A DNA stretch of 64,000 nt. Origin: Candidatus Spyradenecus sp. (GTDB taxonomy: Bacteria > Verrucomicrobiota > Verrucomicrobiia > Opitutales > UBA953). Within the stretch, counting starts at the first letter, position 1, and each line of letters starts with the position of its first letter. Positions 107-64,000 of this stretch are shown here, piece after piece. The notes beneath the pieces were generated by a model. It had not been told where the DNA came from and made no database searches. It saw only the letters and a list, made by a program, of their open reading frames with translations. The position numbers and the translations under genes were made by a program. The stretch is from positions 1-64,000 of the forward strand of contig JAZSKX010000017.1 of the NCBI GenBank assembly GCA_045535075.1, given 5' to 3'.

Positions 107-523
107 CTACAAAGATACAAATCGATGATGAATAACGCGAGAGATTGAGTCGTCGCGTGCAAGATAAACTTCAACGACATCGAAACGATGCGCTCTCGGA
201 CGTTCCCGCAAAGCCTTTAAATACGCACGGATCGCGCGTTTCTGTGCTCGCCGCTTGCGTGCGTCCACCGCCGCATATCCGCCGCGCAAATCACCTTCTG
301 CGCGTGTTTTTACTTCGACAAAAACAAGGCAATTCCCTTCCAGGGCAACAATATCCACCTCATCACGCCCGTGCCGCCAATTTCGCAGGAGAATTTTCAT
401 TCCCGACCGACGTAAAAATTTTGCAGCATGGCGCTCTCCTAAGTCGCCGCGCCGCTGGCGAAGCGTTCTCTTTTCCTTTCTGAAAAGGAACGAACGCAGT
501 TTCGCCAGCCATTCCCGCCACAT
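107..523 (-). CDS. YraN/UPF0102 family endonuclease-like protein
   Basis: G.LGE..A..FL, EVDIVA, LVFVEVKTR and RFDVV motifs; abuts ruvB. Confidence 0.9.
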   Translation of the reverse strand: MWREWLAKLRSFLFRKEKRTLRQRRGDLGERHAAKFLRRSGMKILLRNWRHGRDEVDIVALEGNCLVFVEVKTRAEGDLRGGYAAVDARKRRAQKRAIRAYLKALRERPRAHRFDVVEVYLARDDSISRVIHHRFVSL

Positions 524-1585
524 TTAGAACAGACTTCCCTGCTTGCCGAAAGTGCGCTCCACGTCGCACACGCCCCAGCCTTTTTCCGTAAGCACGCGTC
601 CTTGCGGCGTGCGCGCGATGTAGCCTTCCTGAATCAAATACGGCTCGTGAACTTCCTCAAGCGTGTGCTCGTCCTCGCCGACGGCGACGCCGATGGTGCC
701 GAGCCCGACGGGACCGCCGTTGTAATTCTGTGCGAGTGTGCGCAATATGCGCTTATCCATGTCGTCCAAGCCGTGGCGGTCGATTTCGAGCAATTCGAGC
801 GCAGCGGCAGCGGTTTTTTGGTCGATAGCGCCGTTCCCGCGTTCGAGAGCATAGTCGCGTGCGAAGCGGATAAGATTGTTCACAATACGCGGTGTGCCGC
901 GCGCACGACGTGCAATTTCCATCGCGCCGCCGTCGTCCGCCGCGATGCCGAGTTTCGCGCAGTTGCGTTTGACGATTTTAAACAAATCTTCGTGAGAGTA
1001 ATAATCAAGGCGCGTTTGAAGCGTGAAACGGGAACGCATCGGTGCGGTGAGCAAGCCCGTGCGCGTCGTTGCACCGACCAGCGTAAAGCGCGGAATCGAC
1101 AGGCGGACACTGCGCGCGTTCGGACCTTGGTCAATCATGATGTCGATACGAAAATCCTCCATCGCCGAGTAAAGAAATTCTTCCACGACCTTGGAAATGC
1201 GGTGGATTTCGTCGATAAAAAGAATTTCGCCCTCTTCAAGCGCCGTGAGCAAACCCGCAAGGTCGGCAGGTTTTTCAATGACGGGACCGGAAGTAATTTT
1301 CACTTTCGTTCCCATTTCTTCGGCAAGAATCAGCGCGAGTGTGGTTTTGCCCAAGCCGGGCGGACCGTGAAGCAAAATGTGGTCGAGAGCCCGGCGTTCC
1401 CGCCGCGCCGCACCGACCATCACGCGCAGACGCTCAATCGTGCGCGGTTGCCCGGTAAAATCGTCAAAATTCGGCGGGCGCAACGCCTGATCCAGCGTCG
1501 CATCCTTGCGCGCAAGCGCGTCTTCGAAATAACTGCGCGGCTCATCGTCCGCGTATCCGTTCTGCTCTGTTTTTTTCTTCGCCAT
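524..1585 (-). CDS. ruvB: Holliday junction branch migration helicase RuvB
   Basis: LRP..F.DF.GQ, GPPGLGKTTLA, FIDEIHR, GATTR.G, RGTPR and RTPQGR motifs. Confidence 0.98.
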   Translation of the reverse strand: MAKKKTEQNGYADDEPRSYFEDALARKDATLDQALRPPNFDDFTGQPRTIERLRVMVGAARRERRALDHILLHGPPGLGKTTLALILAEEMGTKVKITSGPVIEKPADLAGLLTALEEGEILFIDEIHRISKVVEEFLYSAMEDFRIDIMIDQGPNARSVRLSIPRFTLVGATTRTGLLTAPMRSRFTLQTRLDYYSHEDLFKIVKRNCAKLGIAADDGGAMEIARRARGTPRIVNNLIRFARDYALERGNGAIDQKTAAAALELLEIDRHGLDDMDKRILRTLAQNYNGGPVGLGTIGVAVGEDEHTLEEVHEPYLIQEGYIARTPQGRVLTEKGWGVCDVERTFGKQGSLF

Positions 1586-1853
1586 CAGGAATTTTCAAGA
1601 AAGATAGCGCGTTCCCGCAGAAAAAGGAACGCGAAATTCACCCAAGCGCAGCAAAATTAAACCTGAAATTAGAAACCGAAATGCCACGACAAAATACCGA
1701 TTAATTTAATCCGGGAAGGAAAATTTTACGCCGTAAAACAGCTTGCGGGCTTAGGCGCGTTAGCGCTTGTCGGCACACGTCGCCGCCGCAAATAAAGATG
1801 CCCTTAAAATCTATTCCGGCAACGCGGCTAAAACCGCTTTGCCTATAAAAAGG

Positions 1854-1888
1854 CGTTCCCGCGAAACCTAAATCGCGGGAACGTTTTT
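1854..1888. terminator. Intrinsic terminator made of an inverted pair of the CGTTCCCGC motif
   Basis: CGTTCCCGCGA-N8-TCGCGGGAACG with A/T runs on both sides, just after the def stop. Confidence 0.7.
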
Positions 1889-1890
1889 GT

Positions 1891-2484
1891 TTAAGCTTTG
1901 GCTCGGCGAGCGGCTTTAATTTCCGCAAGCGTATCGCGCTTGAGCGATTTAAGTTTTGCCGTGTTGCGCAGGCGGTCGCGGGCTTCCATCCGATCGACAA
2001 AAACAATGCCCTGACAATGGTCGTTTTCGTGTTGTGCGCATCGGGCAAGCATTCCCGTACACTCCAAAACATGCGGGTTGCCTTCGACGTCTTGGAATTT
2101 TACACGTACGTTCTCACAACGCGCGACTTCGCCGCGAATCCCCGGGAAGGAAAGGCAGCCCTCGCGGCACAGCCACTCTTCATCGTCAAGCAATTCAATC
2201 GTCGCATTTGCAAATGCCATCGGCATGGCAAGTTGCGCGGGAACGGGCTTGCCGTCGAGCACCAATTCGAAATCCTGCTCTTCCCCTGCGGGCGGGCGCA
2301 AATCGATGACAAAAAACTGCATCGCAAGTCCGACTTGCGGCGCGGCGAGCCCGATGCCGTTGGTCGCATGCATCGTTTCCACCATATCATCGGCAAGCTG
2401 CTTGAGTGCGGCATCAAAAACCGTAACCGCGTCACCTTTTTTTCGAAGTACGGGATCGCCGTAATGAACAACCGAGAGAGTCAT
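1891..2484 (-). CDS. def: Peptide deformylase
   Basis: GIGLAAPQVG, EGCLS and QHENDH motifs; start taken at MTLSVVHYGDPVL (ATG 2484). Confidence 0.96.
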   Translation of the reverse strand: MTLSVVHYGDPVLRKKGDAVTVFDAALKQLADDMVETMHATNGIGLAAPQVGLAMQFFVIDLRPPAGEEQDFELVLDGKPVPAQLAMPMAFANATIELLDDEEWLCREGCLSFPGIRGEVARCENVRVKFQDVEGNPHVLECTGMLARCAQHENDHCQGIVFVDRMEARDRLRNTAKLKSLKRDTLAEIKAARRAKA

Positions 2485-5772: not shown

Positions 5773-5832
5773 TTCCTAAAACAAAACGTTCCCGTGATTT
5801 ACTCACGGGAACGTTTTGTTTATTCCGAGAAA
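5773..5832. repeat. Direct repeat copy 1 flanking the TA module; contains a bidirectional terminator hairpin
   Basis: TTCCTAAAACAAAACGTTCCCGTGATTTACTCACGGGAACGTTTTGTTTATTCCGAGAAA, near-identical to 6531-6588. Confidence 0.9.
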
Positions 5833-6530: not shown

Positions 6531-6588
6531 TTCCTAAAACAAAACGTTCCCGCGATTTACTCACGGGAACGTTTTTTATTCCGAGAAA
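6531..6588. repeat. Direct repeat copy 2 flanking the TA module; contains a terminator hairpin
   Basis: Near-identical to 5773-5832. Confidence 0.9.
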
Positions 6589-9897: not shown

Positions 9898-9987
9898 TTG
9901 CTCCTCCGGCTCGACTGATTTTTACCAACGATTTCCCGGCGTTCCCGCAACACACGGGAACGCCGGCAAGCCTTATTCTCCCGAAGC

Positions 9988-12900
9988 TCAGTACAATTTA
10001 TCCGTTGCAACGCACAAAACGTCTTTCCCGCTCAAGAAGGCAATTTCTTTCGCCTGACGCTCCTCGGATTCCACGAAAAGCGTCGTTCTCTCGCGCGCCT
10101 TGTAAGCTTCCGCCTTGAACGCGGCATGGCAATTCGCCCGCCGACGCTCTTCCGCTGTCGCCATATTCAACATCACCAACTCGTCATACTGAACGCCGTG
10201 TTCCCGCAACCACGTCTCCGTCGGCTCGCGATACTTTTCGAGACGGCTGGTAACAATCGCTCGAATCTTGTAACTCGGGATATACAGCGGCTTTGCGTTT
10301 TTTATAAAATTCAGATACTTGGCTCCGTCGTCGTTTTCCTCCGGAGTCGGATCCGCACAAAGTACGCCGTCCATATCAAAACACGCACTTCCCGCTAAAG
10401 AATGATTTAAATAATTCCACTGCCAAACTCGCCGTCCGTCAACAAGCTCCAAGCAACAATCAAGCTTGTCCGCGCTCTCCGTTCGCCCGTAAACAGCCGC
10501 AAAAACAAACTCATACTTGCCGGCAACCGCCTTCAGCCGCTCTTTTGTCCGCGCCAACGCAGAGCCGCTAAAACAGGAATCATCAACAACCAAAACCTTG
10601 CGAATCGACATCGCCCCGACAGGACGCGCCCCGGTTGAAATCTCCGTATCGCTCAAAAATTCATCCAACGAGCAACAACGCTTGTTCATAAACAGCGCAA
10701 TCGTATAAGCCGGAATCATTCCCGAACGCGGGACGCCGACAACCAAATCCGCGTCCGCCGGCAGCTTATGCAGATTCGTGCGAATACAATGCGCTAAATC
10801 GCCGAAAGTACGAAACTCCAAGGAATTCGGCTTACACTTTTCCAACGCCGCATAGCTTTCAATCACCGAAGCCCGCAGAGCCTTTTGCGCCGACGCCAAA
10901 TTCGAAACCGCCGCCGTTTGCGACGACAGCCCCGCAGTCAACGCCGAACTCAAGCCGTCGAGTTCCCGCGAAAGCATTTCCGCGCGCTCCGCAAAAAACT
11001 TTTTCTGCGCATCCATCCTCGCAAGCTGTTCCCGCGAAACAACATCCGCGCGTTCCCGCACCTGATCAAGCTCGGTCTTAATATTCGCCGACAAGCCCTT
11101 CTGCGCACGGGCAATTTCCTGCTTCAACTCATTAAATCGCCGCTCCGACTGCGCTTGCGCGCCTTTAATCGCAGAAAGAATCTGTTGCGTCTGCCATTCC
11201 ATGTGGCGGATAATCCGCTTTTCCGTATGCGCCACTTTCGAACGCGACGCGGGAACGACTGCGTTGAATAAGCGCCGCAGCGGATTGCGTTCACGCTTCT
11301 TCTGTTTGCGCAGACGGCGTTCCTCCGGAGAAAGCGCATTCACGTCAACGCCGTTCTTCGGCGTCAAATCCATATGCCGCGCACGAAACGCCTTACGCTT
11401 CTTTTTAGAAAAAATAAACAGCGACACCACCCGCACGCCAAAACGCTTCAGTGCAGAGTCGCTCTTCGCACGTCCCCGCAGATTCACGTCAATCCCGTCG
11501 CGCGGAACAAGATTCAAATGCTTCGCACGAAACGCTTTACGTTTCGACTTCGAGAAAATAAACAACGCCGCGAAACGCACCGCAAAACGTTTCAACGCCG
11601 AGTCCCGACGCAGTTCCGGATGCGCATGAATATCGATTCCGTTTTTCGGCGTTAAATCCATGTGGCGTTCCCGCCAACGCTTCCGCGCCGCCTTGTTCCA
11701 AATAAACATCGCCCCAAGGCGAACCAACAATCGCGGAAGCTTTTTCGAGCATTCCGGAGTAGAAGCAACCACGGATGAACACGGTTTTTCACGGAGAGTG
11801 CTCGACGTTTCCCGTCCTGTATTCTTATCTGCAGGTTTCGGAATATAAATCCTTTCCAATTTGGGTAGAATCTGCGGGTACGCCTCTAAAACACGCCGTA
11901 AAGCTCTGTCGTTTTCGCCGTGAACATTCACTGTCTTCCACAGCCCGACTTCCTGTGTCCCGTCCGGATGCTTTAGTCGGAAAACACTCGGTGTAACACA
12001 AATTTTTGTTCCCGCGAGAACCGCCATCGCCCAAAACCAAATATCGTCCCCGTGCGGGCAAAGTTTTTGAAATTTTTCAATATCAAGAACATCTCCGTGC
12101 AGACAATTCGGAGGATATAGACAGCCTCCTCCTCCCGTTAAGAAATTATTAAACGATGCACGTTCCAGTTTAATTTCTTTTTTCCACATGGCATAAGGTG
12201 CAAGATCCCCTGCCGAATTAAACGAAATTTCGTGAGCTCTGTGTGTGTGAATGCAGTTAGGTGCTTTGAGGTAAGAGGAAACTAATTCTTCCAGCCATGT
12301 CGGTTCGAGAATCAGGTCGTCGTCGACAGTAACAAGCACGGCATCCGGAAACGCTTTCAGCGCAGGAATAAGCTTTTTGTATGATTTTAAATCCTCACAC
12401 CAACGAATTTCCAAGCCGCGATCCCGCAACGCAAGAAGCTCTTCGGGCAAATCTCCTTCTTTCTGCGGGAATTGAGAGTCCGCCAACCAAAGAACAATTC
12501 GATCCGCTTTCCACGTTTGAGAAAGTAATGTCTCAATCGTCAAATAAACCGTTTTGATGCGTGCAGGAAAGGAAGTAAGTGAAACAACTATTCGGAAAGA
12601 AGATTGGGACAAATGAGTCAAAAGTTTTACATCTATAGGTGCTAATTGAGCAGTAAGGACTCTTAACAAATCTTTGCTTTTTAATGCGGGGAAAAGAGAA
12701 ACAACATCACGCATTTTTTCACAAAAAACTCCTCCAGAAATATTCCCGCCAAAGCAGTATTTAAGTCTCCATTTTGCAATATTCCACAAACGCCAAATGA
12801 GAACATCCCCTTGCCTATCCATTAATCCTCTATCATTCCAAAAATCTCGAAGACTTGCACTCCCTTCAATAAATTCAAGCCAAGTCTTTTGAGGATCTCT

Positions 12901-47993: not shown

Positions 47994-48012
47994 CGGAATT
48001 GAAACGCCAAGC

Positions 48013-48892: not shown

Positions 48893-50329
<1,437 letters not shown>

Positions 50330-50460
50330 TTATAAAAAAAGAAGTGTTCCCGCAGATAGATACAAACGTTTCCGGATATTTTTCAAAAGCTTCGCGTTAA
50401 AAACATTCGTGGCGGGTTGTGTTCATTTCTTTAAGCTTTAAGCCCTAAGCACTCAACTTT

Positions 50461-51360: not shown

Positions 51361-51427
51361 TTTTGAAAAAAGATTAAAGCTTAATGCTTAAAGCTTAAAG
51401 AAAGTGTAAGTTTTAAGAAAAAGCAGT

Positions 51428-51808
51428 TTAAGATTGAATTGATTGTTTGTTGCGACGAAGCCCGCTAAGCATTCTCGCAATTTCCTGAATGAGAGCCCCT
51501 AAGTCCTCAAAGCGTTCCCGCGAAACGTACCCCAAATCCTCCGCCAGTTGAAGTTGGCAAAAAACTTCCATCAACGAACCGTAAGCGATTTCGATAAAAC
51601 GGATTTGATCTTTCGGGGATTCCTTTGCACTTCCTTCAGCAATGTTTGAAGGGACGGAAATCACGGCTCGCCGCAATTGATCCGCAAGCGAAAAACGCTC
51701 CGCTTGCGGGAACGATTCCAACACGGAGTAGACGCGTTTCACCAGCGCGCGCGACTTCTGCCACACAAGCAACTTTTGAAACGAGAAAAATGTGTTGGGA
51801 CTTTCCAT
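51428..51808 (-). CDS. Four-helix-bundle (23S rRNA IVP-like) protein
   Basis: FQKLLVWQKS, FP..ERF.L.DQLRRA.ISVPSNIAEG and IAYGSL.E motifs. Confidence 0.94.
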   Translation of the reverse strand: MESPNTFFSFQKLLVWQKSRALVKRVYSVLESFPQAERFSLADQLRRAVISVPSNIAEGSAKESPKDQIRFIEIAYGSLMEVFCQLQLAEDLGYVSRERFEDLGALIQEIARMLSGLRRNKQSIQS

Positions 51809-51850
51809 CTTCAAACTCTCTTTAAGCTTTAAGCATTAAGCTCTAAGCTT

Positions 51851-53377: not shown

Positions 53378-53418
53378 AGTTGTGATTTCGTTTTAAGTTT
53401 TTTGTTTTTGTTAAAGGG
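53375..53418 (-). repeat. atpA leader plus ATG, repeated at about 55877-55915 and 56910-56954
   Basis: Plus strand CATAGTTGTGATTTCGTTTTAAGTTTTTT(G..)TTAAAGGG occurs three times. Confidence 0.9.
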
Positions 53419-53426: not shown

Positions 53427-54350
53427 TTAACAGCCGCCGCCGCATCCTCCACGGAAACGGGATTTCGATTTCTTTGCCGTTAGCCAATAAGCAATTAATG
53501 TTTTTTGGAGTTCGGAAAACTGATCCTGCAATTTAACGCTAATCGGAGGCGTTGCCAAAAAATAAAGGAGTGCATGGAAATCGCGATCACCTTGAAGTTC
53601 CAACGGGACTTTGAGAATGTCTGATTCACGGGAACGCCACCGGGAAACACTCCTTAGCAGGAGAAAGTATTCGTAAATTTTTTGAGGATTATTTTCCGCC
53701 CAGCCGAGCAAGGCATCGCGCTCCCGTGCGAGAAGACGCTCGCGTTTCCCGATTAAATATTTTTGGCGAATATACATAAATTTCGCCATTTCTAATGCCA
53801 AGTTCCCATCTCGAATTTTCGTTGTTTTGGGAAGTTCGAGAATCGGTTTGTATAATTCTTCCGGCGAGTCATTTTCCGCTTCCGAGAAAATATCGGCTAC
53901 AATTTTCAGACTCATCTCGAATTGCTCCCTGGCAAGCTCCGGTGCCAAATTTTTCATTTCGGAAGAAAGTAATTCTTCGAGAAAACGCTCTTTCGCCTGG
54001 ATGTCAACAAGGGCGATTGACTCCAACCACCGATTTCCGCTCTTACAAAAATCGTCAAACGGCATACGCCACCCAAGCAACTCATTGTAAGTTTTCTTAT
54101 TTTTTTCAAATCGTTCCCGCGCTTTTTCCTGCGTTTTTAAACTCGGAATCTCAACAACAACATTTCCGGAAGAAACTTCGCGGGAAACCGGCTCATCTTC
54201 GTCGTAGAAATAACCAAACCGCAACGCCTTTTTCTCGTATTTTTGCGTTTTCGCGGTTTTTTCTCCGTACATAACAGGACCTGCCGGACGCGCAAAAAGC
54301 AAACTGCATCCGACAAAGAAAAAAGCCAAGATCGTTGAGAGATTATTCAC
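53427..54350 (-). CDS. Hypothetical exported protein (cassette gene B3)
   Basis: 307-aa ORF, GTG start overlapping the upstream gene end, hydrophobic N-terminus, C-terminal GGCGGGC. Confidence 0.7.
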   Translation of the reverse strand: MNNLSTILAFFFVGCSLLFARPAGPVMYGEKTAKTQKYEKKALRFGYFYDEDEPVSREVSSGNVVVEIPSLKTQEKARERFEKNKKTYNELLGWRMPFDDFCKSGNRWLESIALVDIQAKERFLEELLSSEMKNLAPELAREQFEMSLKIVADIFSEAENDSPEELYKPILELPKTTKIRDGNLALEMAKFMYIRQKYLIGKRERLLARERDALLGWAENNPQKIYEYFLLLRSVSRWRSRESDILKVPLELQGDRDFHALLYFLATPPISVKLQDQFSELQKTLIAYWLTAKKSKSRFRGGCGGGC

Positions 54351-55725
54351 TGGATTGCCCCGGACAAAAATCTTTTTTCACTGAAATACTTAATCCTGTT
54401 CCAGACCACAGTACGCCATCAGAATCAACGCTTACGAGTTTAATTTTTTTACACGTTGCAACCTGAACACTCTTCGGTGAAATCTCTTTCTTGTAGTCTC
54501 TCTCATCATTCTCTGTTTTCTCTATTTCAACTAATTCCTCTTCAGAAGCGACCGTCCACCTAACAGGAATTTTCCACGTTAACGTCCCAAGTATAGCTCC
54601 TTCTTCTGCATCCAAAAAATCCTTACTATTAAAGAAATCGTAAGGAAATTCAAATATGCCAAACCCGACAGTATCTTCCCAATCGTTTTCTTTCTTTAAA
54701 GCCATAAGTTCAGTTCCAGGTTCATGGACTGTCCCCGACATTCCCGAAAATATTCCTGTCGCACTCCTCTCTCCAATGCATTCCCAAAATCGAGCACCGG
54801 CGAATGAAACATCAGTAGGGTGTACTACTACTTTATATTTTGTTGTCATTCCTACCTCGGCTCGGACAGTCACTTTTTCTCCCGAATCAAGCTTACTAAC
54901 CGTTTCATAGAACGCATTTCGTTCATCAATAATTTCCTCGCCTATTTGGAATTCCGGACAGACAACAGAAATAAAATCCTTTAAAACCTCTCCGTCCGCA
55001 AACATCGCAAGTAACACAACATCCCCATCCACATAAAACCTATCCCCTAGAATTTCAATATTCCCCGCAGTTGGCGGAGTAATCGTCAACACGCTTCCAT
55101 CGGCAAACTCAAGTCGTACAGACGAAGGTCCTTCCAACTCCAAACTTTCATCATCTTTAGAGCGAATCCAAATTTTTAAAGATTCCCCGACTCCAATTTT
55201 TCGGCGCTCTGAAATCGGATAATTTTCTGTTAGCCCCGCATTTCCCGCATTCGGAGGGGCATAGAGAAAGCCTATGTGTAGCTTCCTTAAAGACCGTTTC
55301 AGAATAATTGTTACGTTAAGAGAATATGGACCGCCGATGGTTTCGTAATTCCCACTAAGAGAAAGGCTGTCAGAGGGAGAGCTTATCCATTGCTTTGTTT
55401 CATCCTCGCTCGGATTATGCAAGGTTGAACTCGCTGAAATTTCCCCGATATTCACAGTTGCGGTATCATCAGAAGAAACACGTACGGAATAAAGATTCGC
55501 GGAGTATTTAATGCTACAGGAAAATGCTGCCGTAAATTTTTGTTGGTAATAGGGTGCTGTTCCTGAAAACCCAAACGAAATCGTTGTTATTTCATACGCG
55601 CCGGAAATCTCCCGTGTAACAGCAGGAATTATGCTTTCCGCCAAGCCTTCAGGCGGGTTTTCTCCTCCACTCACAAAGCGCCAATCGGATATAAAACTCT
55701 GCCAATTTAATGTTTCCGTGCTCAT
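54343..55725 (-). CDS. Hypothetical protein (cassette gene A3), paralog of 57701-59383
   Basis: Starts MSTETLNWQSFISDWRFVSGGENPPEGL; shares SSDDTATV, GGPYSL, VHPTDVSFA and PVRW motifs. Confidence 0.8.
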   Translation of the reverse strand: MSTETLNWQSFISDWRFVSGGENPPEGLAESIIPAVTREISGAYEITTISFGFSGTAPYYQQKFTAAFSCSIKYSANLYSVRVSSDDTATVNIGEISASSTLHNPSEDETKQWISSPSDSLSLSGNYETIGGPYSLNVTIILKRSLRKLHIGFLYAPPNAGNAGLTENYPISERRKIGVGESLKIWIRSKDDESLELEGPSSVRLEFADGSVLTITPPTAGNIEILGDRFYVDGDVVLLAMFADGEVLKDFISVVCPEFQIGEEIIDERNAFYETVSKLDSGEKVTVRAEVGMTTKYKVVVHPTDVSFAGARFWECIGERSATGIFSGMSGTVHEPGTELMALKKENDWEDTVGFGIFEFPYDFFNSKDFLDAEEGAILGTLTWKIPVRWTVASEEELVEIEKTENDERDYKKEISPKSVQVATCKKIKLVSVDSDGVLWSGTGLSISVKKDFCPGQSSE

Positions 55726-55769
55726 TGTTTTATCCTTTTGGGTTATTTGTTCGTAGAGGGAAAAACATT

Positions 55770-55802
55770 CTACGCGGAAGCGAGAGAGGCGCGGAGGCGG
55801 GC
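55770..55802 (-). pseudogene. Orphan copy of the atpH 3' end (ARLRASLASA-stop)
   Basis: GCC CGC CTC CGC GCC TCT CTC GCT TCC GCG TAG versus native GCT CGC CTC CGA GCC TCC CTC GCT TCC GCG TAG, followed by a near-identical UTR. Confidence 0.85.
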
Positions 55803-55971
55803 GCTCTCCGAAATCGCATCGTCTGAACACGATCCGCCAACACTCCGCCTTCTTTAATCGGCTCATCTTCGTCGTTCATAGTTGTGATTTCGTTTTAAGT
55901 TTTTTTGTTAAAGGGGGGTTAGATCCATTTTGTTTTTCTCGACGCGCCTCCGCCTCACAAATCGCATTATA
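55801..55971. repeat. About 170-bp direct repeat, copy 1 (B-gene 3' end, atpA leader, A-gene C-terminal fragment)
   Basis: Near-identical to 56834-57009. Confidence 0.92.
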
Positions 55972-56766
55972 GATTGGGATAAGACTTTGATGGATACATC
56001 CTTCTTCATTTTTGTGTTCTTTGAGATAACGCTCCGACATTTTTCCAAAGTTTGTTTTTTGGAGAATTCGGCTCTTTTCGAAAAGCTCAAGGGGTTTATC
56101 CATGTCATCCGGATACGCTCTGATAAGCAATGAAATAAAATCGTCGACCACTACTAACAACGCCGTCATGTTGGTACGATATCTTATTCGACGCAATCTG
56201 TAAGAGTAAAAATCTTCACGACGTTTTAATTGTGCAACGACGTCCGCTTCGGTAAGATTCCGCGCACGAAGCGCATCTCCTTCAATTTTCAGCTGAACAC
56301 GCCCCCAATCGTCCTCACTTAAAAAATCCGCAATGAGCGCAGATGCCATTTCCGCGTTTTGGCGTAAAGATTCCATAGAAGCCCCTCGGAAGGGCGGACG
56401 ACAAAGCTCCTTCATGAAACGAAGCTTTGCAATTATCTCTTTCTCAATTTTCGGATTAGGTCTGAGCGGATTCCCCTCGTAGTAGAAGGATCCGTATCGA
56501 GGATTGCTGTATTGAGGATTATTAAATTCATCATAAGAAACGCGGCGTTTATACAAAATTCGGAATCGTTCTTCCCGAGGCAAAGCTAAAAAATCTTTGT
56601 TTTCCGGGAAAATAATGGCCCCCGGATGAGCTTCACGCATCATAATATTCGCCAACCACCGGCTATCTTCCTCTCGCGAAGGAAGATTCTCTCCCCTTTG
56701 TTCTTCCGCATGAACAACCACACAGAAAAAGCAAAAAAGAATTACCAACAATCGCCGCAAAAACAT
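55876..56766 (-). CDS. Hypothetical exported protein (cassette gene B2), paralog of B1
   Basis: Signal peptide; EER..IL..R.VSY.E, LR.NAE.ASAL.AD.LSE..WG and IYNAICEAEARREKQNGSNP shared with B1. Confidence 0.8.
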   Translation of the reverse strand: MFLRRLLVILFCFFCVVVHAEEQRGENLPSREEDSRWLANIMMREAHPGAIIFPENKDFLALPREERFRILYKRRVSYDEFNNPQYSNPRYGSFYYEGNPLRPNPKIEKEIIAKLRFMKELCRPPFRGASMESLRQNAEMASALIADFLSEDDWGRVQLKIEGDALRARNLTEADVVAQLKRREDFYSYRLRRIRYRTNMTALLVVVDDFISLLIRAYPDDMDKPLELFEKSRILQKTNFGKMSERYLKEHKNEEGCIHQSLIPIYNAICEAEARREKQNGSNPPLTKKLKTKSQL

Positions 56767-56768
56767 TA

Positions 56769-56912
56769 TTAAGAAATCCTTTCGCTCTTAAATTCCTTGG
56801 AAACATGAACTTCGAGCAACGGCGACGGTGGAAGCGCTCTCCGAAATCGCATCGTCTGAACACGATCCGCCAACGCTCCGTCTTCTTTAATCGGCTCATC
56901 TTCGTCGTTCAT
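56769..56912 (-). pseudogene. 47-codon orphan C-terminal fragment of an A-family gene, fused to an atpA-leader copy
   Basis: MNDEDEPIKEDGALADRVQTMRFRRALPPSPLLEVHVSKEF aligns with the A1 end ..DGCLPDRVQTMTLYKNQTPPPLLTVVVKKVF. Confidence 0.75.
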
Positions 56913-57009
56913 AGTTGTGATTTCGTTTTAAGTTTTTTTGTTTTTGTTAAAGGGGGTTAGATCCATTTTGTTTTTCTCGACGCGCCTCCGCCTCACAAAT
57001 CGCATTATA
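56834..57009. repeat. About 175-bp direct repeat, copy 2
   Basis: Near-identical to 55801-55971. Confidence 0.92.
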
Positions 57010-57717
57010 AATACATTGTTCCTCAGATCTCCATCTCGAAAATCCTTTTTTATACTCGTCGGACATCTTCCCTTTATGTGTTCTTTGGGGAATCAAACTT
57101 TTCTCGTAGAGGGCAACTGCCGCATCCCAATCGTCCGAATAAGCCTCAATAAGCAACTGATGAAACTCCCCCATGTCGTTAGGTCCGGTGTTGCTAAAAC
57201 TTCTCTCCACTAAAAACAGTCTGGCTTCATAAAACGAGCGTATCGCCTTCAAGCGCTTAGTAAATACGTCCTTATCAAGGTTTAGAGCTTGGAGTCGTTG
57301 CTCAGCTCTTTTCAACTGCTGCTCGCCCCATTCTTTTTCACTCAAAAGATCGGCAAACAATGCAGACGCTTTTTCTGCGTTACTTCTCAACTCATCCCGC
57401 GTTACATGTTTTTTACAATAGGCCCTGCACAGGGAATACGCCAGATAGCGCTTAGCACGAATCTCACATCGAACAGAGACGATTCCAGGCCCCCGGGGAT
57501 ATTTGTCTTCTTCATAAGAAACTTTGCGCCCAAGCAAGATTTTGTAGCGCTCCTCAACGGGAAGGCTCCAATATTCCTCTATCGTTCCCGCATAAATAAT
57601 TTTTCCGGGAAAAAATCGTTCTTCCAATATTTTCGCCATGGAAACCTCTTCTGCAGTAGCGGCATTCCCGCAAAAAAGCAACAAGGTCCATAAAACTAAT
57701 TTAAACAGGATATTCAT
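56947..57717 (-). CDS. Hypothetical exported protein (cassette gene B1)
   Basis: Signal peptide MNILFKLVLWTLLLFCGNAATA; start overlaps the A1 end. Confidence 0.8.
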   Translation of the reverse strand: MNILFKLVLWTLLLFCGNAATAEEVSMAKILEERFFPGKIIYAGTIEEYWSLPVEERYKILLGRKVSYEEDKYPRGPGIVSVRCEIRAKRYLAYSLCRAYCKKHVTRDELRSNAEKASALFADLLSEKEWGEQQLKRAEQRLQALNLDKDVFTKRLKAIRSFYEARLFLVERSFSNTGPNDMGEFHQLLIEAYSDDWDAAVALYEKSLIPQRTHKGKMSDEYKKGFSRWRSEEQCIYNAICEAEARREKQNGSNPL

Positions 57718-59383
57718 TTCCAAAAACTTTTTTTACCACAACTGTAAGTAGCGGCGGCGGAGTTTGATTTTTATACAAAGTCATGGTTTGAACTCGATCG
57801 GGCAAGCAACCATCCGCACGTATCATCGAATTTTGCCCTTCCTCGCCCGGATTATTCATGCTCCATCTTACCGGACAAACCCACTTCAAGACTCCAACAT
57901 CGCCAGCCTCCGACACAATCGCGGACTCGATTGTGTCGTCTGAAAAATTTGCAGCATAAAACGCACAATCCGTCCATTGGTTTTCACCATACAATTGGCA
58001 GGGTTCAGCCGGCAAATGAGCTGTATCAAGTCCAGGCTCCAAAAACAATCCGGATTTTTCCTCCGGGTGTTCATTCTCCCAAAAATATAAGTACGCAAAC
58101 GAAACGTCCGTCGGATGAACCGTTATCAAATAATAGTTCCCGTCGTAATAAGGATTTCCTTTATAGTCAATTCGTCGTTTAGCGATCTGTTCTTCTGTCT
58201 CCCCGTGCCACTTCAAAAAATTCACAAATTCTTCTTCCGTTAGCTTTTTTACCGTCTCGTGCGTAGGGTATTTAATTGTAAATTTCAACGGAATTTCTTC
58301 TCCATCGTCAAAACAAGCAATAAGTTGACACTCCCGCTCCGACTCCCCGTTTTTGGGAAGAAGACTTGTCTTTGCGCAAACCTCGTCTTTGTACAAATCA
58401 TAAGACTCCGCCCAAGAATCAGGCGCTCCTAGGAGTTTTTTTGTGTATTTATGCCTTAGTCGAACATGGGCAACCTCTGATACGCCAAACACATTACGTT
58501 CAGCAAGCTTCCCCTTAAGCTCCTCCTCAGAGTATTCCGGAACATGCATTAGCTCATCCGGCGTGTTTAAGAGAGTTTCAAAATAAACTTCCCGTAACGA
58601 CCGTTTTACGGTAATGGTTACAGAAAGACGATACGGACCACCGGCGTTGTGATAGGAAACGGAGATTGGGAACGTATTCGGGACTTTCTCTATCCAACCG
58701 GAATCATACCTCGCAGGATTGTTCAAGGTTGCCCTCACGAGATAATCTCCGACGGAAACCGTCGCCTCGTCGTCAGCTTCGACGCTGATTTCCACCCAAC
58801 TCCCACCGTCAATTTCAAGCGGAAGACTATCCCACGAAAATCCCAACGTATCAGATCGGGCGTTCCCGCTAAACGAAAGTCTCGCCGTTTTTATTTCATA
58901 GGGACCGGACTCTGTCCATGCTTCACTGACAACCCATTTTGCGCCAATTAAACGCTTTAAAGTAATCGTTACCGAAAGTGAATACGGACCGCCTATTGTT
59001 TCAAATGTTCCCGAGACTGCCGGAAGATTGCCTGCGGTGTCGCTCCACGCGGACGAAGCAATACCTCCGGCGTTAAGCCGCGACGAAACAAAATCCACTC
59101 CTCCAAGTTGCACGGTTGCGGTATCATCCGACGAAACAGATACTTCGTAAAAATTTACAGCTCCCAAAACACGAAACGAAAATTCCGCCGTGAATTTCTG
59201 CTGATGATACGGAGCCGTTCCCGAAAAACCGAACGAGATGGTTGTAATTTCAAAAAGTCCGTCCGAACTTCTTGTAACCGCCGGAACAACACTTTCCCCC
59301 AAGCCTTCCGGCGGGTTTTCTCCTCCACTCACAAAGCGCCAATCGGATATAAAACTCTGCCAATTTAATGTTTCTGTGCTCAT
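57701..59383 (-). CDS. Hypothetical protein (cassette gene A1) with a duplicated beta-rich N-terminal domain
   Basis: 560-aa ORF; two units with DD.ATV and GGPY.LSVTIT.KR; no signal peptide. Confidence 0.8.
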   Translation of the reverse strand: MSTETLNWQSFISDWRFVSGGENPPEGLGESVVPAVTRSSDGLFEITTISFGFSGTAPYHQQKFTAEFSFRVLGAVNFYEVSVSSDDTATVQLGGVDFVSSRLNAGGIASSAWSDTAGNLPAVSGTFETIGGPYSLSVTITLKRLIGAKWVVSEAWTESGPYEIKTARLSFSGNARSDTLGFSWDSLPLEIDGGSWVEISVEADDEATVSVGDYLVRATLNNPARYDSGWIEKVPNTFPISVSYHNAGGPYRLSVTITVKRSLREVYFETLLNTPDELMHVPEYSEEELKGKLAERNVFGVSEVAHVRLRHKYTKKLLGAPDSWAESYDLYKDEVCAKTSLLPKNGESERECQLIACFDDGEEIPLKFTIKYPTHETVKKLTEEEFVNFLKWHGETEEQIAKRRIDYKGNPYYDGNYYLITVHPTDVSFAYLYFWENEHPEEKSGLFLEPGLDTAHLPAEPCQLYGENQWTDCAFYAANFSDDTIESAIVSEAGDVGVLKWVCPVRWSMNNPGEEGQNSMIRADGCLPDRVQTMTLYKNQTPPPLLTVVVKKVFGNEYPV

Positions 59384-59431
59384 TGCTTTATCCTTTCGTT
59401 TGAGTTATTTGTTTGTAGAGGGAAAAACATT

Positions 59432-59842
59432 CTACGCGGAAGCGAGGGAGGCTCGGAGGCGAGCGAGCGTTCCCGCAAGCGAGGCATCGTAAACATCGTC
59501 GCCGACCTGGACGCGCAAGCCGCCGAGAAGTGCGGCGTTTTCCGTGGCGACGGGCACAATCGGGCGATTATAAATTTCGGAAAAATGCGCAGCGATGGCA
59601 TTTACCGTTCCCGCAGCGAGCGTTCCCGCGTATTCAATGCGAGCTTCGGAAAAACGCAGTTCGCGGGCGACGGCGGCGTAAAACGCCTCAAGAATCGGAC
59701 GCAATTGCGCCGACGGGAACGCCTTGGGGAGTTCCGAGAGCACGGCTTTGACGCGCGCGGCATCGATGTTCCCGTCCGCCCCGCGCGAAAGCTCCGTGAG
59801 CCGCGCCGTCACTTTCTGCAAATTTTTATCTTTCTTAGCCAT
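59432..59842 (-). CDS. atpH: ATP synthase delta subunit (short form)
   Basis: LLGGLRVQVGDDVYDASL motif; operon position. Confidence 0.92.
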   Translation of the reverse strand: MAKKDKNLQKVTARLTELSRGADGNIDAARVKAVLSELPKAFPSAQLRPILEAFYAAVARELRFSEARIEYAGTLAAGTVNAIAAHFSEIYNRPIVPVATENAALLGGLRVQVGDDVYDASLAGTLARLRASLASA

Positions 59843-59900
59843 TTTCTTTTAAAAATTTATTTTTTAGAGAAACCACGAATTTCACGAATGAACACGAATT

Positions 59901-60761
59901 TTATTCCGAAGATTCGAGCGTAAAATTTTCATTGCTTAAAAGCATTCGCCGTTCCCGCTCGATTTGCGGAATGCCTTTCGGCGGACACGGCAAATCTTCC
60001 GGTAAAGTTCCGCCGAGATCTTTAATCGTTTCGCGAACTTTTTTGCCGACTTCGTAATGAGCGGAATTTGCGGCGGTTTTTCCCGTGATGTTTTCCCGAC
60101 GGATTTTCTCCTCCGCTTGCGTCGCACGGAAAAGGTTCGCGGCAAGTTCCGTGCTACCCATGTGATCGAGAATTTTTTGATTTTTCTTCAACCCTTTGTG
60201 CGCGTGGATCGCTTTCGCGTCCATGCCGCCGTAAAGCCCTTTGTAGCCATGATTTTGGAATATTGCGTAGTCCAATTCCGTGCGAACTCCGGCTTGTTTG
60301 GCTGTTTCGACAAGAGCTTTATTGTGTTCCCGCAACTCGTTGCGCAAAAACAATCGTCGATCCTCTTCGCTGAGAGCCTTAAAGGCAGCATCATCCGCAA
60401 GCTCCTGTCTCCGCGTTTGAATCGCGAAATACGTTTGTCCAAGCGCGATAACGGGCTTCGTCGGATCGCCGTTTTGAACGATAAGGTAACATGCGTAGCG
60501 CGAGAGGTGATAATCTTCGATTTCGCGTTGAGCACCTTTCGCGGCAGTGATCAATTTCACCTTGAGGTGAAAATGATCCGAAGCCTTTGCCCCCGCGGTT
60601 TCGCAGGCGGTTTGGGCTCGAACGATTAGCTCTTTGAATTTTTCCCAGCGGCTGTATTCCAGTGCGGGGAAAAGCTCTCGCGCAGACCAATACTCCCCGC
60701 CTTCGGCAGTGGTGTGTCGGAGCGCTTCAAACGTTTGATTATGTTTTTCGGGAACGGTCAT
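59901..60761 (-). CDS. dinD: DNA damage-inducible protein D family
   Basis: EYWSAREL, LSRYACYLIVQNGDP.K, QTYFAIQTRRQE and HMGSTELAANLFRATQ motifs. Confidence 0.92.
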   Translation of the reverse strand: MTVPEKHNQTFEALRHTTAEGGEYWSARELFPALEYSRWEKFKELIVRAQTACETAGAKASDHFHLKVKLITAAKGAQREIEDYHLSRYACYLIVQNGDPTKPVIALGQTYFAIQTRRQELADDAAFKALSEEDRRLFLRNELREHNKALVETAKQAGVRTELDYAIFQNHGYKGLYGGMDAKAIHAHKGLKKNQKILDHMGSTELAANLFRATQAEEKIRRENITGKTAANSAHYEVGKKVRETIKDLGGTLPEDLPCPPKGIPQIERERRMLLSNENFTLESSE

Positions 60762-60907
60762 GTGTTTTTATTTTTCGGAGAAGAAACCACGAATTTCACG
60801 AATGAACACAAATGTTTTTAACGCAAAGTAAAAAAAGAATTCCGTGGTTAAAATCATTCGTGGAATTTGTGTAATTCGTGGATTCTCCTTTCTTTAAGCA
60901 TTAAGCT

Positions 60908-61465
60908 CTAATCTTTCTTTATCTCTTTTGCGGCGGCTTCGGCGAGGCGGGATTTTTCCGCGGCGGGAAGGTCTCGAGCGAGGAGCTTGGCGGTTGTTTC
61001 GACAACGAGCGCGGCGACTTCGCCTTTCAGATCGGCGAGCATTTTTTCGCGTTCCCGCGCGATGTTTTCGGCGGCACGCTTTTCGGTTTCCTCAGCGCGG
61101 GAAATCGCGTCTTGCGCGGCTTTTTCCACCGTTTCCTTAGCGGCTTTGCGGGCGGATTCGATGACGGCGGCGGCTTCCTGCGCGGCTTGCGTCATTTTCG
61201 CCTTGTAGTCGGCTTCGGACTGCGCGAGCTTCGCCTTCATTTCATCGGAAAACTGCAAGCCTTCCGCAATTTTTGCCTGTCGCTCGGCAATCGTTTTCAT
61301 CAGCGGGCGGAAGCCGAAATACCACACGACGAGCGCGAGCACGGCAAAGCTGATAATTTGGACGACGAGCGGGCCGGCTTCGATGCCGAATTTCGTTGTT
61401 ACCTGTGTAAATTTGTTTCCGCCTTCAGCGGCGGGAACGGCACTGGCTAAAATTTGAGCAAACAT
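60908..61465 (-). CDS. atpF: ATP synthase subunit b
   Basis: TM helix followed by PL...I.ERQ.KI..GL coiled coil; start MFAQILAS. Confidence 0.94.
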   Translation of the reverse strand: MFAQILASAVPAAEGGNKFTQVTTKFGIEAGPLVVQIISFAVLALVVWYFGFRPLMKTIAERQAKIAEGLQFSDEMKAKLAQSEADYKAKMTQAAQEAAAVIESARKAAKETVEKAAQDAISRAEETEKRAAENIAREREKMLADLKGEVAALVVETTAKLLARDLPAAEKSRLAEAAAKEIKKD

Positions 61466-61504
61466 TTTTACGTTGGGGAAAATTGGATAGATAACCGGTA
61501 GGGG

Positions 61505-61615
61505 TAGTGAATAATGAATAGTGAATAATAAATGGTTCATTGCTAAAGTTTTTGCACGAATGAGCAAAAACTTTGAACACTGCGTTATTCGTTATTCACT
61601 ATTCATTATTCACTA
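61505..61615. repeat. Empty heptamer-repeat hairpin with perfect 24-bp arms
   Basis: TAGTGAATAATGAATAGTGAATAA (61505-61528) and its exact reverse complement (61592-61615). Confidence 0.9.
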
Positions 61616-61621
61616 ACTTTC

Positions 61622-61843
61622 TTACGCCAGGAAGAGCACGTAGAACGCGATAGCTTCCGCAAGCGCCATGCCGAGAATCGCGAGAACGAGAATTTTCCCG
61701 AACGCGCCCGGATTGCGCCCGACGGCTTCGACAGCCTTGCTGCCGACCCATCCGACGCCGATAGCTGCCGCCGCGCAACCGAGTGCGACGTGGAGGCTTC
61801 CGTCAACGGCTGCTGCCGCTTGTGCGAGGAGTGCTGTAATCAT
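61622..61843 (-). CDS. atpE: ATP synthase subunit c
   Basis: GRNP loop and conserved Glu in ALAEAIAFY. Confidence 0.96.
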   Translation of the reverse strand: MITALLAQAAAAVDGSLHVALGCAAAAIGVGWVGSKAVEAVGRNPGAFGKILVLAILGMALAEAIAFYVLFLA

Positions 61844-61998
61844 GTTGTTATACCTTTTGTTATTGTGGGTTATTGTGGGTTATTGTGGATTCCGGCGTGG
61901 ACGCTCTCGGCATCCTCCCGCACGGAAAAAGGGAATAAATAAGGCAGACGTGATAGTTGATAACTGATAGGGCACTTATCCGTTTTCAGATTTGCCTT

Positions 61999-62874
61999 TT
62001 AACTTTCCTCTTCGTGCTCGTGGCTGTCGTCGTGGTTCGTAATCAGCCCGATGTAAACCGCCGAAAGTAGCGTAAACACGAGGGCTTGAACAACGCCGAC
62101 GAGGATTTCCAGGAAGTAAAAAGCCGTAAAGTAGCCGGTCGAGTGCATCAGCGTTTCGCCGCCGAAAACGTTCCCGAAGAGACGGAACGACAGCGAAACC
62201 GGACGGAATACAATCGAGATAATTTCAATAAATCCGACTGCGAAAAACACGAGCGAGAGAAAGTAGTAAACCGCCGCGGGAACGTCGCGCTTGTCCGCCT
62301 TGTTCCCGAACCAATCAAAGAAAACCGCCTTCGGTCCGGCGTATTTAAAAATCAAAATCGCCCACGCACCGAAGGAAACGAGCGCAAGTCCGAGCGTGCC
62401 GTTCATGTCCGCACCGAGCGCGCGAAACAGCGGGACGAAATGCTCGGTTTCCGTGCCGTCGGCGGCGATTGCCGTTTCGTGCCAACCGATAGTGCCGACA
62501 CCCGGAATCAGCCCCGCCCAATTCTGCGCGAGAATGAAAAAGAAAAGGCAAATCAGCAGCGGGAACGCCGCCGGGAACGCTTTTTTCCCGAGAATCGGCT
62601 CCAAAATTTCTTTAAACATTCCGATGACGGTTTCGATCGCGTATTGCCCTTTTGAGGGAATCAGCTTCGGCTTTCCGCAGGCGAGGCGAATCAGCACAAT
62701 CAGCAAAATCGCCACGATCCACGCCGTTACGATACTGTTCGTAATCGGCAACGAAAATCCGTCCCAAAGCGGAATCTCGAAGAGTTTTTCTGCGGCTTCC
62801 GTTGCCGCCGAAGCCGCGGGCGCCGCCATCAGCAACGCCGCAATACAGGGGAAAAATTTCATCAAACGAGTCAT
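61999..62874 (-). CDS. atpB: ATP synthase subunit a
   Basis: RPVSLSFRLFGN and QALVFTLLSAVYI motifs. Confidence 0.97.
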   Translation of the reverse strand: MTRLMKFFPCIAALLMAAPAASAATEAAEKLFEIPLWDGFSLPITNSIVTAWIVAILLIVLIRLACGKPKLIPSKGQYAIETVIGMFKEILEPILGKKAFPAAFPLLICLFFFILAQNWAGLIPGVGTIGWHETAIAADGTETEHFVPLFRALGADMNGTLGLALVSFGAWAILIFKYAGPKAVFFDWFGNKADKRDVPAAVYYFLSLVFFAVGFIEIISIVFRPVSLSFRLFGNVFGGETLMHSTGYFTAFYFLEILVGVVQALVFTLLSAVYIGLITNHDDSHEHEEES

Positions 62875-62936
62875 AAGTTTTCGAATTTTATTTTAAGCGC
62901 TACGGGCGATTTGTAAAACGTGTTTTCTCCGGCAAA

Positions 62937-63266
62937 TTAGCGACAGCTCGGGTTCCGGCACACCGCCCAAGCGCCCACAGGACAATAATTGCTAAGCGTT
63001 CCCGGCTCCGAAACTGCAACATCGATGACATTTTCGTCGGGCAGGAACATCAATTCAACACAAACGGGCTTCCCGCCGAGGAGCCGTTCCCGCACAACAA
63101 TTTCTTTCGGATTCTCCCGAAAATACGCTTGGATTTCGAGATTCGCTTCAATGATTTTCGCGATACGATTTGCGTAGCGTTTCAAAACTTTACGACGCTC
63201 CCAAGCGCGTTTTACGAAAACGCCTCCGCATGTCATCGCCAAGGAACTGAAGAAAACGACACCCAT
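62937..63266 (-). CDS. Small hypothetical membrane-anchored protein
   Basis: 109-aa ORF whose start overlaps the trmL stop; hydrophobic N-terminus. Confidence 0.5.
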   Translation of the reverse strand: MGVVFFSSLAMTCGGVFVKRAWERRKVLKRYANRIAKIIEANLEIQAYFRENPKEIVVRERLLGGKPVCVELMFLPDENVIDVAVSEPGTLSNYCPVGAWAVCRNPSCR

Positions 63267-63730
63267 TATTTTCCGCGTGTGATTTGGCGGAGCGCTTCGT
63301 AGGCGGCGATTCCGGCGGCAGTGGAAAGATTCAGCGAACGCAAAGTTTCCGCAGGTTGCGGGATTTTGATTTCAAAATCTTTCCCGATAAAATCGTGGAG
63401 CCACGCGGGAGCGCCATGACCTTCATTGCCGAAAACGAGTCCGTCGCCGTCGCGAAAATCTGCGTCCCAAAGCCCTTTTTCCGCCTTGGTCGTCAACAGC
63501 CAAAGCCGAGTCGGGCGTTGCGGGAACGCCAAAAATGCGTCCCAGTTTTCGTGGTGCACGACATCGAGCGACTTCCAATAATCCATGCCGGAGCGGCGCA
63601 AATGCGCGTCGGTAATTGTAAATCCGAGCGGATGAATCAGGTGCAGGCGGGAACGCGTAATCGCACACATGCGCCCGATGTTGCCCGTATTTTGCGGAAT
63701 TTCCGGATTAAAAAGAATGAGGTGGAGCAT
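63266..63730 (-). CDS. trmL: tRNA (cytidine/uridine-34-2'-O)-methyltransferase
   Basis: PEIPQNTGNIGR.C, LRRSGMDYW and RSLNLS SPOUT motifs. Confidence 0.95.
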   Translation of the reverse strand: MLHLILFNPEIPQNTGNIGRMCAITRSRLHLIHPLGFTITDAHLRRSGMDYWKSLDVVHHENWDAFLAFPQRPTRLWLLTTKAEKGLWDADFRDGDGLVFGNEGHGAPAWLHDFIGKDFEIKIPQPAETLRSLNLSTAAGIAAYEALRQITRGK

Positions 63731-63872
63731 TTTGAAAGTAAGTTTAAAAGCTGAGGAGCTGAAAAGTTTGGTCGGCGAGCCGAGATGTTTTCCTTTATAT
63801 GGTTAAAACAAGATTCTTTTTCTACAAGCAAAACAACTAAACTTCTCAGCTCTTAAGCTCTTCAGCCTCTCT

Positions 63873-64000
63873 CTACTGCGGATAAACCATCATGCACGCC
63901 ATACCGGCGGCTTCGGCAGCATCAAAACCTTTCGGGCTGTCTTCGACGACAAGGCATTCCCGCGCGGGAACGCCGAGCTTTTCCGCCGCAAGCAGAAACA
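63873..64000 (-). CDS. HAD-family phosphatase (beta-PGM-like), 3' end only
   Basis: My translation: FLLAAEKLGVPARECLVVEDSPKGFDAAEAAGMACMMVYPQ-stop; runs off the window edge. Confidence 0.85.
   Translation of the reverse strand, partial: FLLAAEKLGVPARECLVVEDSPKGFDAAEAAGMACMMVYPQ

Follow-up and report, generated by a model that had tools for sequence, protein, structure and literature searches.

Sequence-specific DNA uptake has been described in only two proteobacterial families (bioRxiv 10.1101/2025.10.24.684340). The closest described systems are the DNA uptake sequence (DUS) of the Neisseriaceae, whose receptor is the minor pilin ComP, and the uptake signal sequence (USS) of the Pasteurellaceae, whose receptor is still without experimental proof, although a candidate has been modelled by co-folding of protein and DNA (PMC12616744). 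[quoted passage not shown] Here, the short non-palindromic word GTTCCCG (CGGGAAC on the other strand) was analyzed in a 64,000-nucleotide stretch of Candidatus Spyradenecus sp. (positions 1 to 64,000 of contig JAZSKX010000017.1, designated C16:1-64000 of the genome G000 and hereafter called the window) and in the genome to which it belongs. The first-pass annotation of the window had proposed the word as a candidate uptake signal, with a Chi-like site or a methyltransferase-linked motif as alternatives. Our analysis indicates that the extended word, CGTTCCCG(C/T), is probably a genus-specific self word of the DNA uptake type, that is, a presumed functional analogue of the DUS and USS.

Like the Neisseriaceae DUS, the word occurs in thousands of short non-palindromic copies on both strands, within genes and between them; it is common to related species, depleted in acquired islands and found in mosaic genomes. 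However, its sequence is unrelated to the DUS GCCGTCTGAA (PMC1852404), it belongs to another phylum, is shorter (8–9 bases) and is 2–4 times denser; neither a ComP_DUS domain nor ComEA was found in G000, and the genus and its sister genera differ here in density only and not by dialects. The likeness to the Pasteurellaceae USS includes a core of about 9 bases with position-dependent stringency, comparable to the specificity of Haemophilus influenzae (PMC3458573), location within coding sequence in more than one frame, with some burden on the protein (PMC2817400), and the presence of pairs in terminators. The word differs from the USS in its sequence and lineage and in having no AT-rich extended flank. 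It resembles HIP1 in the degree of over-representation, in conservation in place and in its location inside genes, but it is asymmetric, and the three methyltransferases tested (MmeI-like, C5 and D12) did not include a conserved one. No uptake sequence of Verrucomicrobia was found in the searched literature, the matches being judged by title, and a search for the word itself gave unrelated sequence matches only, among the matches listed. Thus, the word appears to show every DUS/USS hallmark that was tested in silico, yet it belongs to neither family.

Abundance and consensus of the word

The G000 assembly comprises 1.95 Mb in 18 contigs with 52% G+C and is 99.45% complete as estimated from marker genes; it contains no 16S rRNA gene. 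The copies in the window are as follows.

202..63971, both strands: GTTCCCG/CGGGAAC, 196 copies (111 on the plus strand, 85 on the minus strand), from the window count and the genome logo

Dinucleotide-preserving shuffles of the window gave 13.0 ± 3.7 copies, and none of 100 shuffles reached the observed 196 (the largest value was 24). Genome-wide, the word was found 6528 times in 1.95 Mb, which corresponds to about one copy per 300 bases, and it ranks first among all 7-mers. A maximal-order Markov expectation was dropped as uninformative, since the motif also dominates its own sub-words. The copies that had been counted by hand in the first-pass annotation (29 in bases 1–10000 and 23 in bases 10001–20000) proved to be exact. 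Its statements that most copies extend beyond the 7-mer and that a variant recurs also held: CGTTCCCG accounts for 163 of the 196 window copies and the 9-mer CGTTCCCGC for 109 (5159 and 3244 copies in the genome, respectively), while 39 copies of the variant CGCTCCCG were counted in the window, with 4.6 ± 2.2 expected.

The genome-wide logo, for which that annotation had called, reads g-C-GTTCCCG-(C/T)-(g/a), with CGTTCCCG(C/T) as the core, and its information is flat outside ±2 bases. The flat flanks show that this is a bare word and not a part of a longer repeat. Features of repetitive extragenic palindromes or miniature inverted-repeat transposable elements were not observed either, given these flanks and the location of the copies mainly in open reading frames (ORFs). 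One-mismatch variants of CGTTCCCGC at the second T, the last C and the last G remained at background (3–59 copies), while those at the remaining positions, CGCTCCCG among them, reached 49–1266 copies. Such graded stringency by position, as for a binding protein, points to a putative protein reader of the word.

Location in genes, on strands and along the chromosome

Genes were called by a greedy choice of the longest ORFs with a minimum of 70 aa; these cover 92% of the genome. Of all copies, 5784 lie in the called ORFs and 751 are intergenic; the density is 4.95 per kb between genes and 3.21 per kb inside them. Within the ORFs, 2365 sense and 3419 antisense copies were found, compared with 403 ± 19 and 587 ± 19 in 20 within-gene shuffles of synonymous codons. 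The word is therefore 5–6 fold over-represented even against this null, which is conservative because it retains amino acid sequences and codon usage that are already shaped by the word. Each of the six reading frames was enriched (3.4–8.6 fold over the same shuffle), in agreement with the earlier claim that no protein or codon effect is involved. The sense to antisense ratio was 41:59 in the data and in the codon null alike, so there is no preference for the transcript strand. The word acts at the level of DNA and not at the level of RNA or protein.

It had also been noted that, in the part counted, the copies lie about 2:1 in favor of the plus strand. This was true for the first 20 kb (35:17), where the excess is due to gene orientation, but not for the whole window (111:85) or the genome (3359:3169). 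The leading strand, set from GC skew in 20-kb windows, carries 2473 of 5278 copies (46.9%) and 294 of 607 intergenic copies (48.4%), although 57% of the coding bases are located there. This absence of replichore polarity, which an uptake signal predicts, excludes a Chi-like or FtsK-orienting polar sequence (KOPS)-like signal for recombination or chromosome segregation, one of the alternatives offered in the first-pass annotation. An abundant non-palindromic 8-mer within core genes would fit such a signal, but a copy per 300 bases far exceeds what it needs, and we regard this explanation as highly improbable.

Inverted pairs and predicted terminators

Adjacent copies in the genome form 227 '+-' pairs (GTTCCCG...CGGGAAC) at distances of 7–30 bases, with a peak at 19, compared with about 60 pairs of the '-+' type. 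With a gap of no more than 10 bases between the copies, 85 '+-' and 16 '-+' pairs were found. The consensus of the pairs is aaaaaaGC-GTTCCCGC-loop-GCGGGAAC-GCtttttt. They occur in 52 of 261 tail-to-tail, 82 of 837 co-directional and 8 of 257 head-to-head gene intervals, and 78 lie within ORF calls. RNA folding of six window pairs gave −19 to −32 kcal/mol with z ≤ −5 for five of them, and the sixth was weak. These A-tailed/T-tailed hairpins are read as predicted bidirectional intrinsic terminators. The pairs of the window, together with one abutting pair, are listed below.

5788..5812: inverted '+-' pair, A-tailed/U-tailed hairpin (fold of 5774–5826: −29.7 kcal/mol, z −10.6)
6546..6570: second, near-identical copy of the hairpin at 5788–5812 (fold of 6532–6584: −19.3 kcal/mol, z −5.1)
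9941..9961: inverted-pair hairpin between two minus-strand genes (−25.1 kcal/mol, z −5.4)
33370..33395: inverted pair just 3' of rlmD, at the right edge of a recombinant patch (from positions only)
45297..45322: predicted inverted-pair terminator hairpin in the gap between a plus-strand gene and pstS (−32.4 kcal/mol, z −9.3)
47959..47985: predicted inverted-pair terminator hairpin with an A-run and a T-run (−27.6 kcal/mol, z −6.5)
51029..51042: abutting GTTCCCG and CGGGAAC, a 14-base palindrome in atpG (alignment columns 324/331), kept in most of the genus

The hairpins at 5774–5826 and 6532–6584 have the same flanks, are 758 bases apart and bracket two overlapping small ORFs (5816–6151 on the plus strand and 6113–6466 on the minus strand).

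Terminators made of uptake sequences show the same '+-' bias in Neisseria and the Pasteurellaceae (PMC1852404). For N. meningitidis Z2491, Table 5 of Kingsford et al. 2007 (PMC1852404) gives 226 '+-' against 5 '-+' pairs, with 958 and 934 copies on the two strands; the A/T-tailed '+-' terminators are thus another likeness to the DUS, with 227 pairs in G000 and 226 in Z2491. Compared with the Pasteurellaceae USS, the '+-' bias of the G000 word is stronger. In a phage probe, the hairpin pattern matched three IMG/VR loci, none of which was rich in the motif (0.2–0.3 per kb).

The 227 pairs make good terminator hairpins, and so the word could be primarily a terminator stem or another RNA-level element. 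Only about 450 of the 6528 copies are paired, however, and the 5784 copies in called ORFs are mostly single; the gene strand ratio that equals the null and the enrichment in all frames also speak against an origin in RNA, codons or peptides. An assembly artefact is opposed by the abundance of the word in 19 separately assembled genomes and by independent contigs that are 98–99% alike to the stretch compared. This whole group of explanations is scarcely credible. The contigs in question cover this stretch in four runs from four studies (faeces, sheep gut, sheep and gut metagenomes).

Conservation in place

The first-pass annotation had suggested a comparison of orthologous positions in relatives, and this comparison agreed with a maintained word. 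In 156 kb of orthologous blocks shared by G000 and the genome G016 (mean identity 73.5%), 228 of 434 motif 7-mers (52.5%) were identical in place, against 16.8% of all 7-mers and 17.3% of 7-mers of the same composition; motif sites are thus kept three times better than other words. For atpD, atpG and atpA, eight distant species with a high density of the word keep 44 of 56 motif 8-mers of G000, compared with 33% of other words. Three relatives with a low density keep 12 of 21, compared with 47%, and the low-density genome G014 keeps none of seven, compared with 20%. Some gains of the word alter several bases at once and also the protein, as at column 348 of atpA in G005.

Loss of the word was followed in an 8.6-kb backbone stretch with 19 sites in G000. 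Of the aligned sites, the word is kept at 1 of 18 in the genome G013 and at 6 of 13 in the outgroup G018, and five sites carry it in G000 and G018 but not in G013. Four sites read CGGCAAC in G013 and CGGGAAC in G000, a synonymous change from GGG to GGC in the G-N frame. Since the word is lost in G013 at sites where G000 and the outgroup retain it, it is decaying in the G013 lineage.

Distribution among relatives

The word was highly abundant in all 19 genomes of the genus, where the 9-mer occurs 340–5581 times and a reversed-word control 34–88 times. In 102 genomes of the four sister genera of the family, the 9-mer was found 6–176 times, at or below the reversed-word control, and none of these genomes exceeded it. 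The 10-mer was at background in 12 other families of the order, each represented by one genome. AtpD is no more than 77% identical to that of Opitutales-type Verrucomicrobiota metagenome-assembled genomes in the part (1/64) of the named genomes that was scanned.

Four species of the genus (G001, G002, G013 and G014) contain 4–10 times fewer copies than the others, with 0.5–0.9 copies per kb compared with 3.3 in G000 (58–98 kb were sampled per species). In the same samples, the word is among the commonest 8- and 9-mers of G001, G002 and G013, but not of G014. Dialects were rejected for the four: they have the same word, only rarer, and none that replaces it. No comparable word was found in 57–100 kb from one genome of each of the four sister genera; the CGTACCCG-like 8-mers of the sister-genus genome G031 resolve into codon periodicity. 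Units of the AAAGATTAAAG type occur 28–38 times in the 63-kb sample of G013, and units of the CACCACCAACC type about 30 times in the 58-kb sample of G014; both may be arrays or repetitive genes.

Mosaic structure of the genome

Over the greater part of the window, and over 20 kb of a different contig, the best matches were G001, G002 and G013 (75–88% identity), and the G016 group matched at only 72–79%. Several tracts of the window depart from this background.

537..1618: ruvB patch, 99% identical to G016; the flanks match the best relatives at 75–82%
32105..33380: rlmD patch, 98% identical to G016 and 95% to G007 against an 80% background; junctions bridged by independent contigs
40600..53400: pst-atp tract, 97–98% identical to G016, G007 and G010; left junction bridged by independent contigs
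59394..63900: remaining atp operon, 94–98% identical to G007/G016, compared with 83–85% to G001/G013

That the mosaic stems from chimeric assembly was rejected for the three tested junctions, which are bridged by independently assembled contigs. Logan contigs of the run X2 cross both rlmD junctions and the junction at 40600; as X2 comes from another study, the mosaic is not an artefact of the G000 assembly. In addition, a 101.5-kb Logan contig of the run X1 spans 30001–44234 with 191 differences, and X1 may be the sample of origin. The tree of the atp genes was rejected as a species tree, since the atp region of G000 is a recombinant import.

To estimate gene flow, 400 kb of G016 (C11:1-400000) were compared with the whole of G000. 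Besides 147 diverged blocks (156 kb, mean identity 73.5%), 43 blocks with at least 93% identity to G016 were found, which comprise 80.5 kb, are mostly 96–99% identical and have a median length of 1477 bases (range 374–5115). These 43 blocks are scattered across many contigs, and only 5.6 kb fall between 85 and 95%. The bimodal identity implies that about one third of the aligned DNA was exchanged recently between the species of G000 and G016. Transformation would be expected to leave short replacements of about gene size between species carrying the same word; gene transfer agents or other transfer routes could also lie behind the mosaic. The exchanged blocks contain 3.69 copies per kb and the diverged blocks 2.78, a difference that is confounded by composition and offers a weak hint of a link between copy density and exchange.

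Motif-poor stretches and methyltransferases

In the genome, 10 gaps longer than 3 kb lack the word, against 0.3 expected. Among the 18 gaps that reach 2.5 kb, most of them low in G+C, five touch the MmeI-like gene, the C5 methyltransferase gene, two hsdM genes and a gene for a 1609-aa helicase fusion. Judging from composition and gene content, these are putative foreign restriction or defence islands without the word. The MmeI-family enzyme is encoded at C2:15779-18766 and the 1609-aa DEAD/UvrD double helicase at C5:229513-234342, each in or beside a motif-free low-GC island.

A screen by simple sequence motifs, which may miss enzymes and did miss a second C5-like gene at C8:21575-22063, found an MmeI-family enzyme, a C5 methyltransferase, three HsdM proteins and a D12-class enzyme in G000. 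The MmeI-like, C5 and D12 genes were followed across the genus, and the HsdM genes lay outside this set. The MmeI-like and the C5 gene are each present in 8 of the 18 other genomes of the genus, neither is found in several high-density ones, and the D12-class gene is missing from G003 and G016. Because of this sporadic occurrence, the three genes were rejected as drivers of the motif. As GAAC/GTTC lies inside the word, a crude look for Dnd-type phosphorothioation was also taken, and two PP-loop proteins of about 355 aa were noted.

These results bear on the possibility that the word is the target of a restriction-modification or other defence system and is over-represented as a protected self mark. 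The enzymes encoded in G000 would fit this, and MmeI-family enzymes recognize short asymmetric sites. On the other hand, conservation across the genus was seen for none of the three tested genes, these genes lie in or beside motif-free low-GC islands and so look recently acquired, and restriction sites are normally avoided rather than enriched. A self mark of this kind is very unlikely.

The methyltransferase-linked alternative of the first-pass annotation fared in two ways: for the three tested genes it found no support, while a HIP1-like word with another reader remains the main alternative to an uptake signal. Such a word would serve a DNA-level reader in the stimulation of recombination or repair, in chromosome organization or as part of an orphan methyltransferase pair, without a role in uptake. 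HIP1, whose function long remained obscure, is likewise conserved and over-represented (15–300 fold; PMC5861425, PMC4390886); positional conservation and restriction to a genus would suit any sequence-specific reader, and the retention of competence genes by the low-density species fits a driver other than an uptake machine. Against this, the word is not a palindrome, the three methyltransferase genes are sporadic, and uptake sequences are known from the literature by this combination of '+-' terminator pairs and foreign islands free of the motif. HIP1 itself has recently been linked to transformation (bioRxiv 10.1101/2024.09.10.611283). On this evidence, a HIP1-like word without an uptake role is rather unlikely, if clearly more plausible than a restriction mark.

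Uptake machinery and search for a receptor

The competence genes that had been proposed for a search were found in part. G000 encodes ComEC (570 aa, Competence domain only; C11:3775-5487), DprA, an operon with two PilB-like ATPases, a PilT-like ATPase and PilC, and a PilQ secretin; the three genes preceding that of PilQ may be pilM, pilN and pilO, a guess made from position alone. Six pilin-like genes were found, four of them consecutive, at the loci C1:259100-262331, C2:45148-45813 and C16:99151-99864. Searches of PDB sequences with three of the pilins matched solved pilins in the N-terminal pilin helix only. The three methyltransferases, ComEC, the pilin cluster, the two orphan pilins, the pilus operon and ComP were then profiled across the genomes, and none of the tested genes tracks the word across the genus. 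The pilus operon matches as DNA in G001, G002, G013 and G014. An apparent in-frame TGA in a G014 pilin proved to be its own stop codon, and one pilin copy of G002 is split by contig ends. Two deeply divergent classes of ComEC and of all pilin-like genes exist in the genus; the pilins roughly follow the backbone and ComEC is the most extreme.

A number of observations weigh against an uptake signal. ComEA was not found in G000, where HHH_3 matches were limited to Tex and DnaE, and the six pilin-like proteins contain no ComP_DUS domain, as Pfam gave N_methyl only; a whole-genome search with PF16732 had no match, though its controls also gave none. All six pilin-like proteins are acidic (isoelectric point 4.3–5.1), unlike known DNA-binding pilins. 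ComEC (as a stop-free frame), both orphan pilins and the DNA of the pilin cluster are present in 19 of 19 genomes of the genus, and the low density of G001, G002, G013 and G014 did not go with a loss of these competence genes. For both orphan pilins, homologues of full length occur in the sister genera, which lack the word; being ancestral to the family, the two were rejected as a motif-specific receptor. ComEC of G000 is 63–64% identical to that of G001, G002 and G013 and 33–37% to that of the G016 group, while the word is identical. ComEC, DprA and the pilus ATPases also match in most control genomes, so that their presence is weak evidence. Moreover, the word is short and its density is several times that of any described DUS or USS; the spacing of the copies in the genome is near random rather than even (coefficient of variation 1.09, median 208 against 205 expected), and we know of no cultured member of the genus.

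The proposal of an uptake signal was thus supported in part: the checks that could be run on sequence came out as it predicts, but neither ComEA nor a ComP-type pilin was found, and pilus and competence genes are also present where the motif is rare or absent.

Accessory regions of the window

Two regions of the window combine low GC with few or no copies of the word.

12015..14742: motif-free 2.7-kb stretch with GC 0.43 in the gene for a 1527-aa multi-glycosyltransferase (from counts and GC)
53427..59383, minus strand: five-gene island between atpA and atpH, GC 0.445, 1.18 motifs per kb and none in 54120–57583

The region 9988–14571 encodes a 1527-aa protein with two GT2-type modules and is followed by two glycosyltransferase genes and a UDP-glucose dehydrogenase gene. 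As it is partly low in GC and motif-free, it is likely an acquired polysaccharide locus. The five genes of the island at 53427–59383 had no match in Pfam or NCBIfam. Between 54,351 and 58,580, the island has no DNA match in five relatives except for the 3' 800 bases (G007, 68%) and 56,027–56,629 (G016, 69%); beyond these two short stretches, only the ends of the island were matched. A dinD-like gene (59901–60761) is located between atpH and atpF, so accessory DNA breaks up the ATP synthase operon at two places. At 33654–40572, a bacterial alpha-2-macroglobulin (A2M; 1584 aa) is encoded directly upstream of penicillin-binding protein 1C (PBP1C), a known A2M-PBP1C pair.

Proposed mechanism and significance

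If the word is an uptake signal, a surface or periplasmic uptake component would bind double-stranded DNA that carries it in either orientation; the most likely binder would be a subunit of the type IV pilus or a protein associated with the secretin. Retraction driven by PilT would draw the DNA through the PilQ secretin, ComEC would transfer one strand into the cell, and DprA and RecA would recombine the incoming strand. Both the reading of the word at uptake and the nature of its reader are inferences. Fragments bearing the word would be taken up and recombined more often, so that it would spread and be kept by molecular drive, even at the price of less preferred codons and some amino acid changes, and DNA from other genera would be disfavored. 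Bidirectional intrinsic terminators would have recruited close inverted copies for their stems.

The balance of the evidence tips slightly towards a broader proposal, in which this would be the first uptake self-recognition system outside Proteobacteria and the densest known. It would use a word of 8–9 bases and a receptor unrelated to ComP and would channel gene-sized exchange between species that are about 73% identical, with two lineages in the course of losing the word. In practical terms, the word could be placed in constructs for attempts to transform these organisms, and its density could help to spot foreign sequence and wrongly binned contigs in metagenome-assembled genomes of the same organisms.

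If the proposal is true, a third, independent origin in another phylum would make the tagging of self DNA a recurrent solution, and a system whose receptor cannot be ComP would bear on the question of the receptor. The two lineages losing the word would then be a natural experiment that leads towards this receptor. For the uncultured gut Verrucomicrobia themselves, the word would explain how the exchange of core genes continues over deep divergence.

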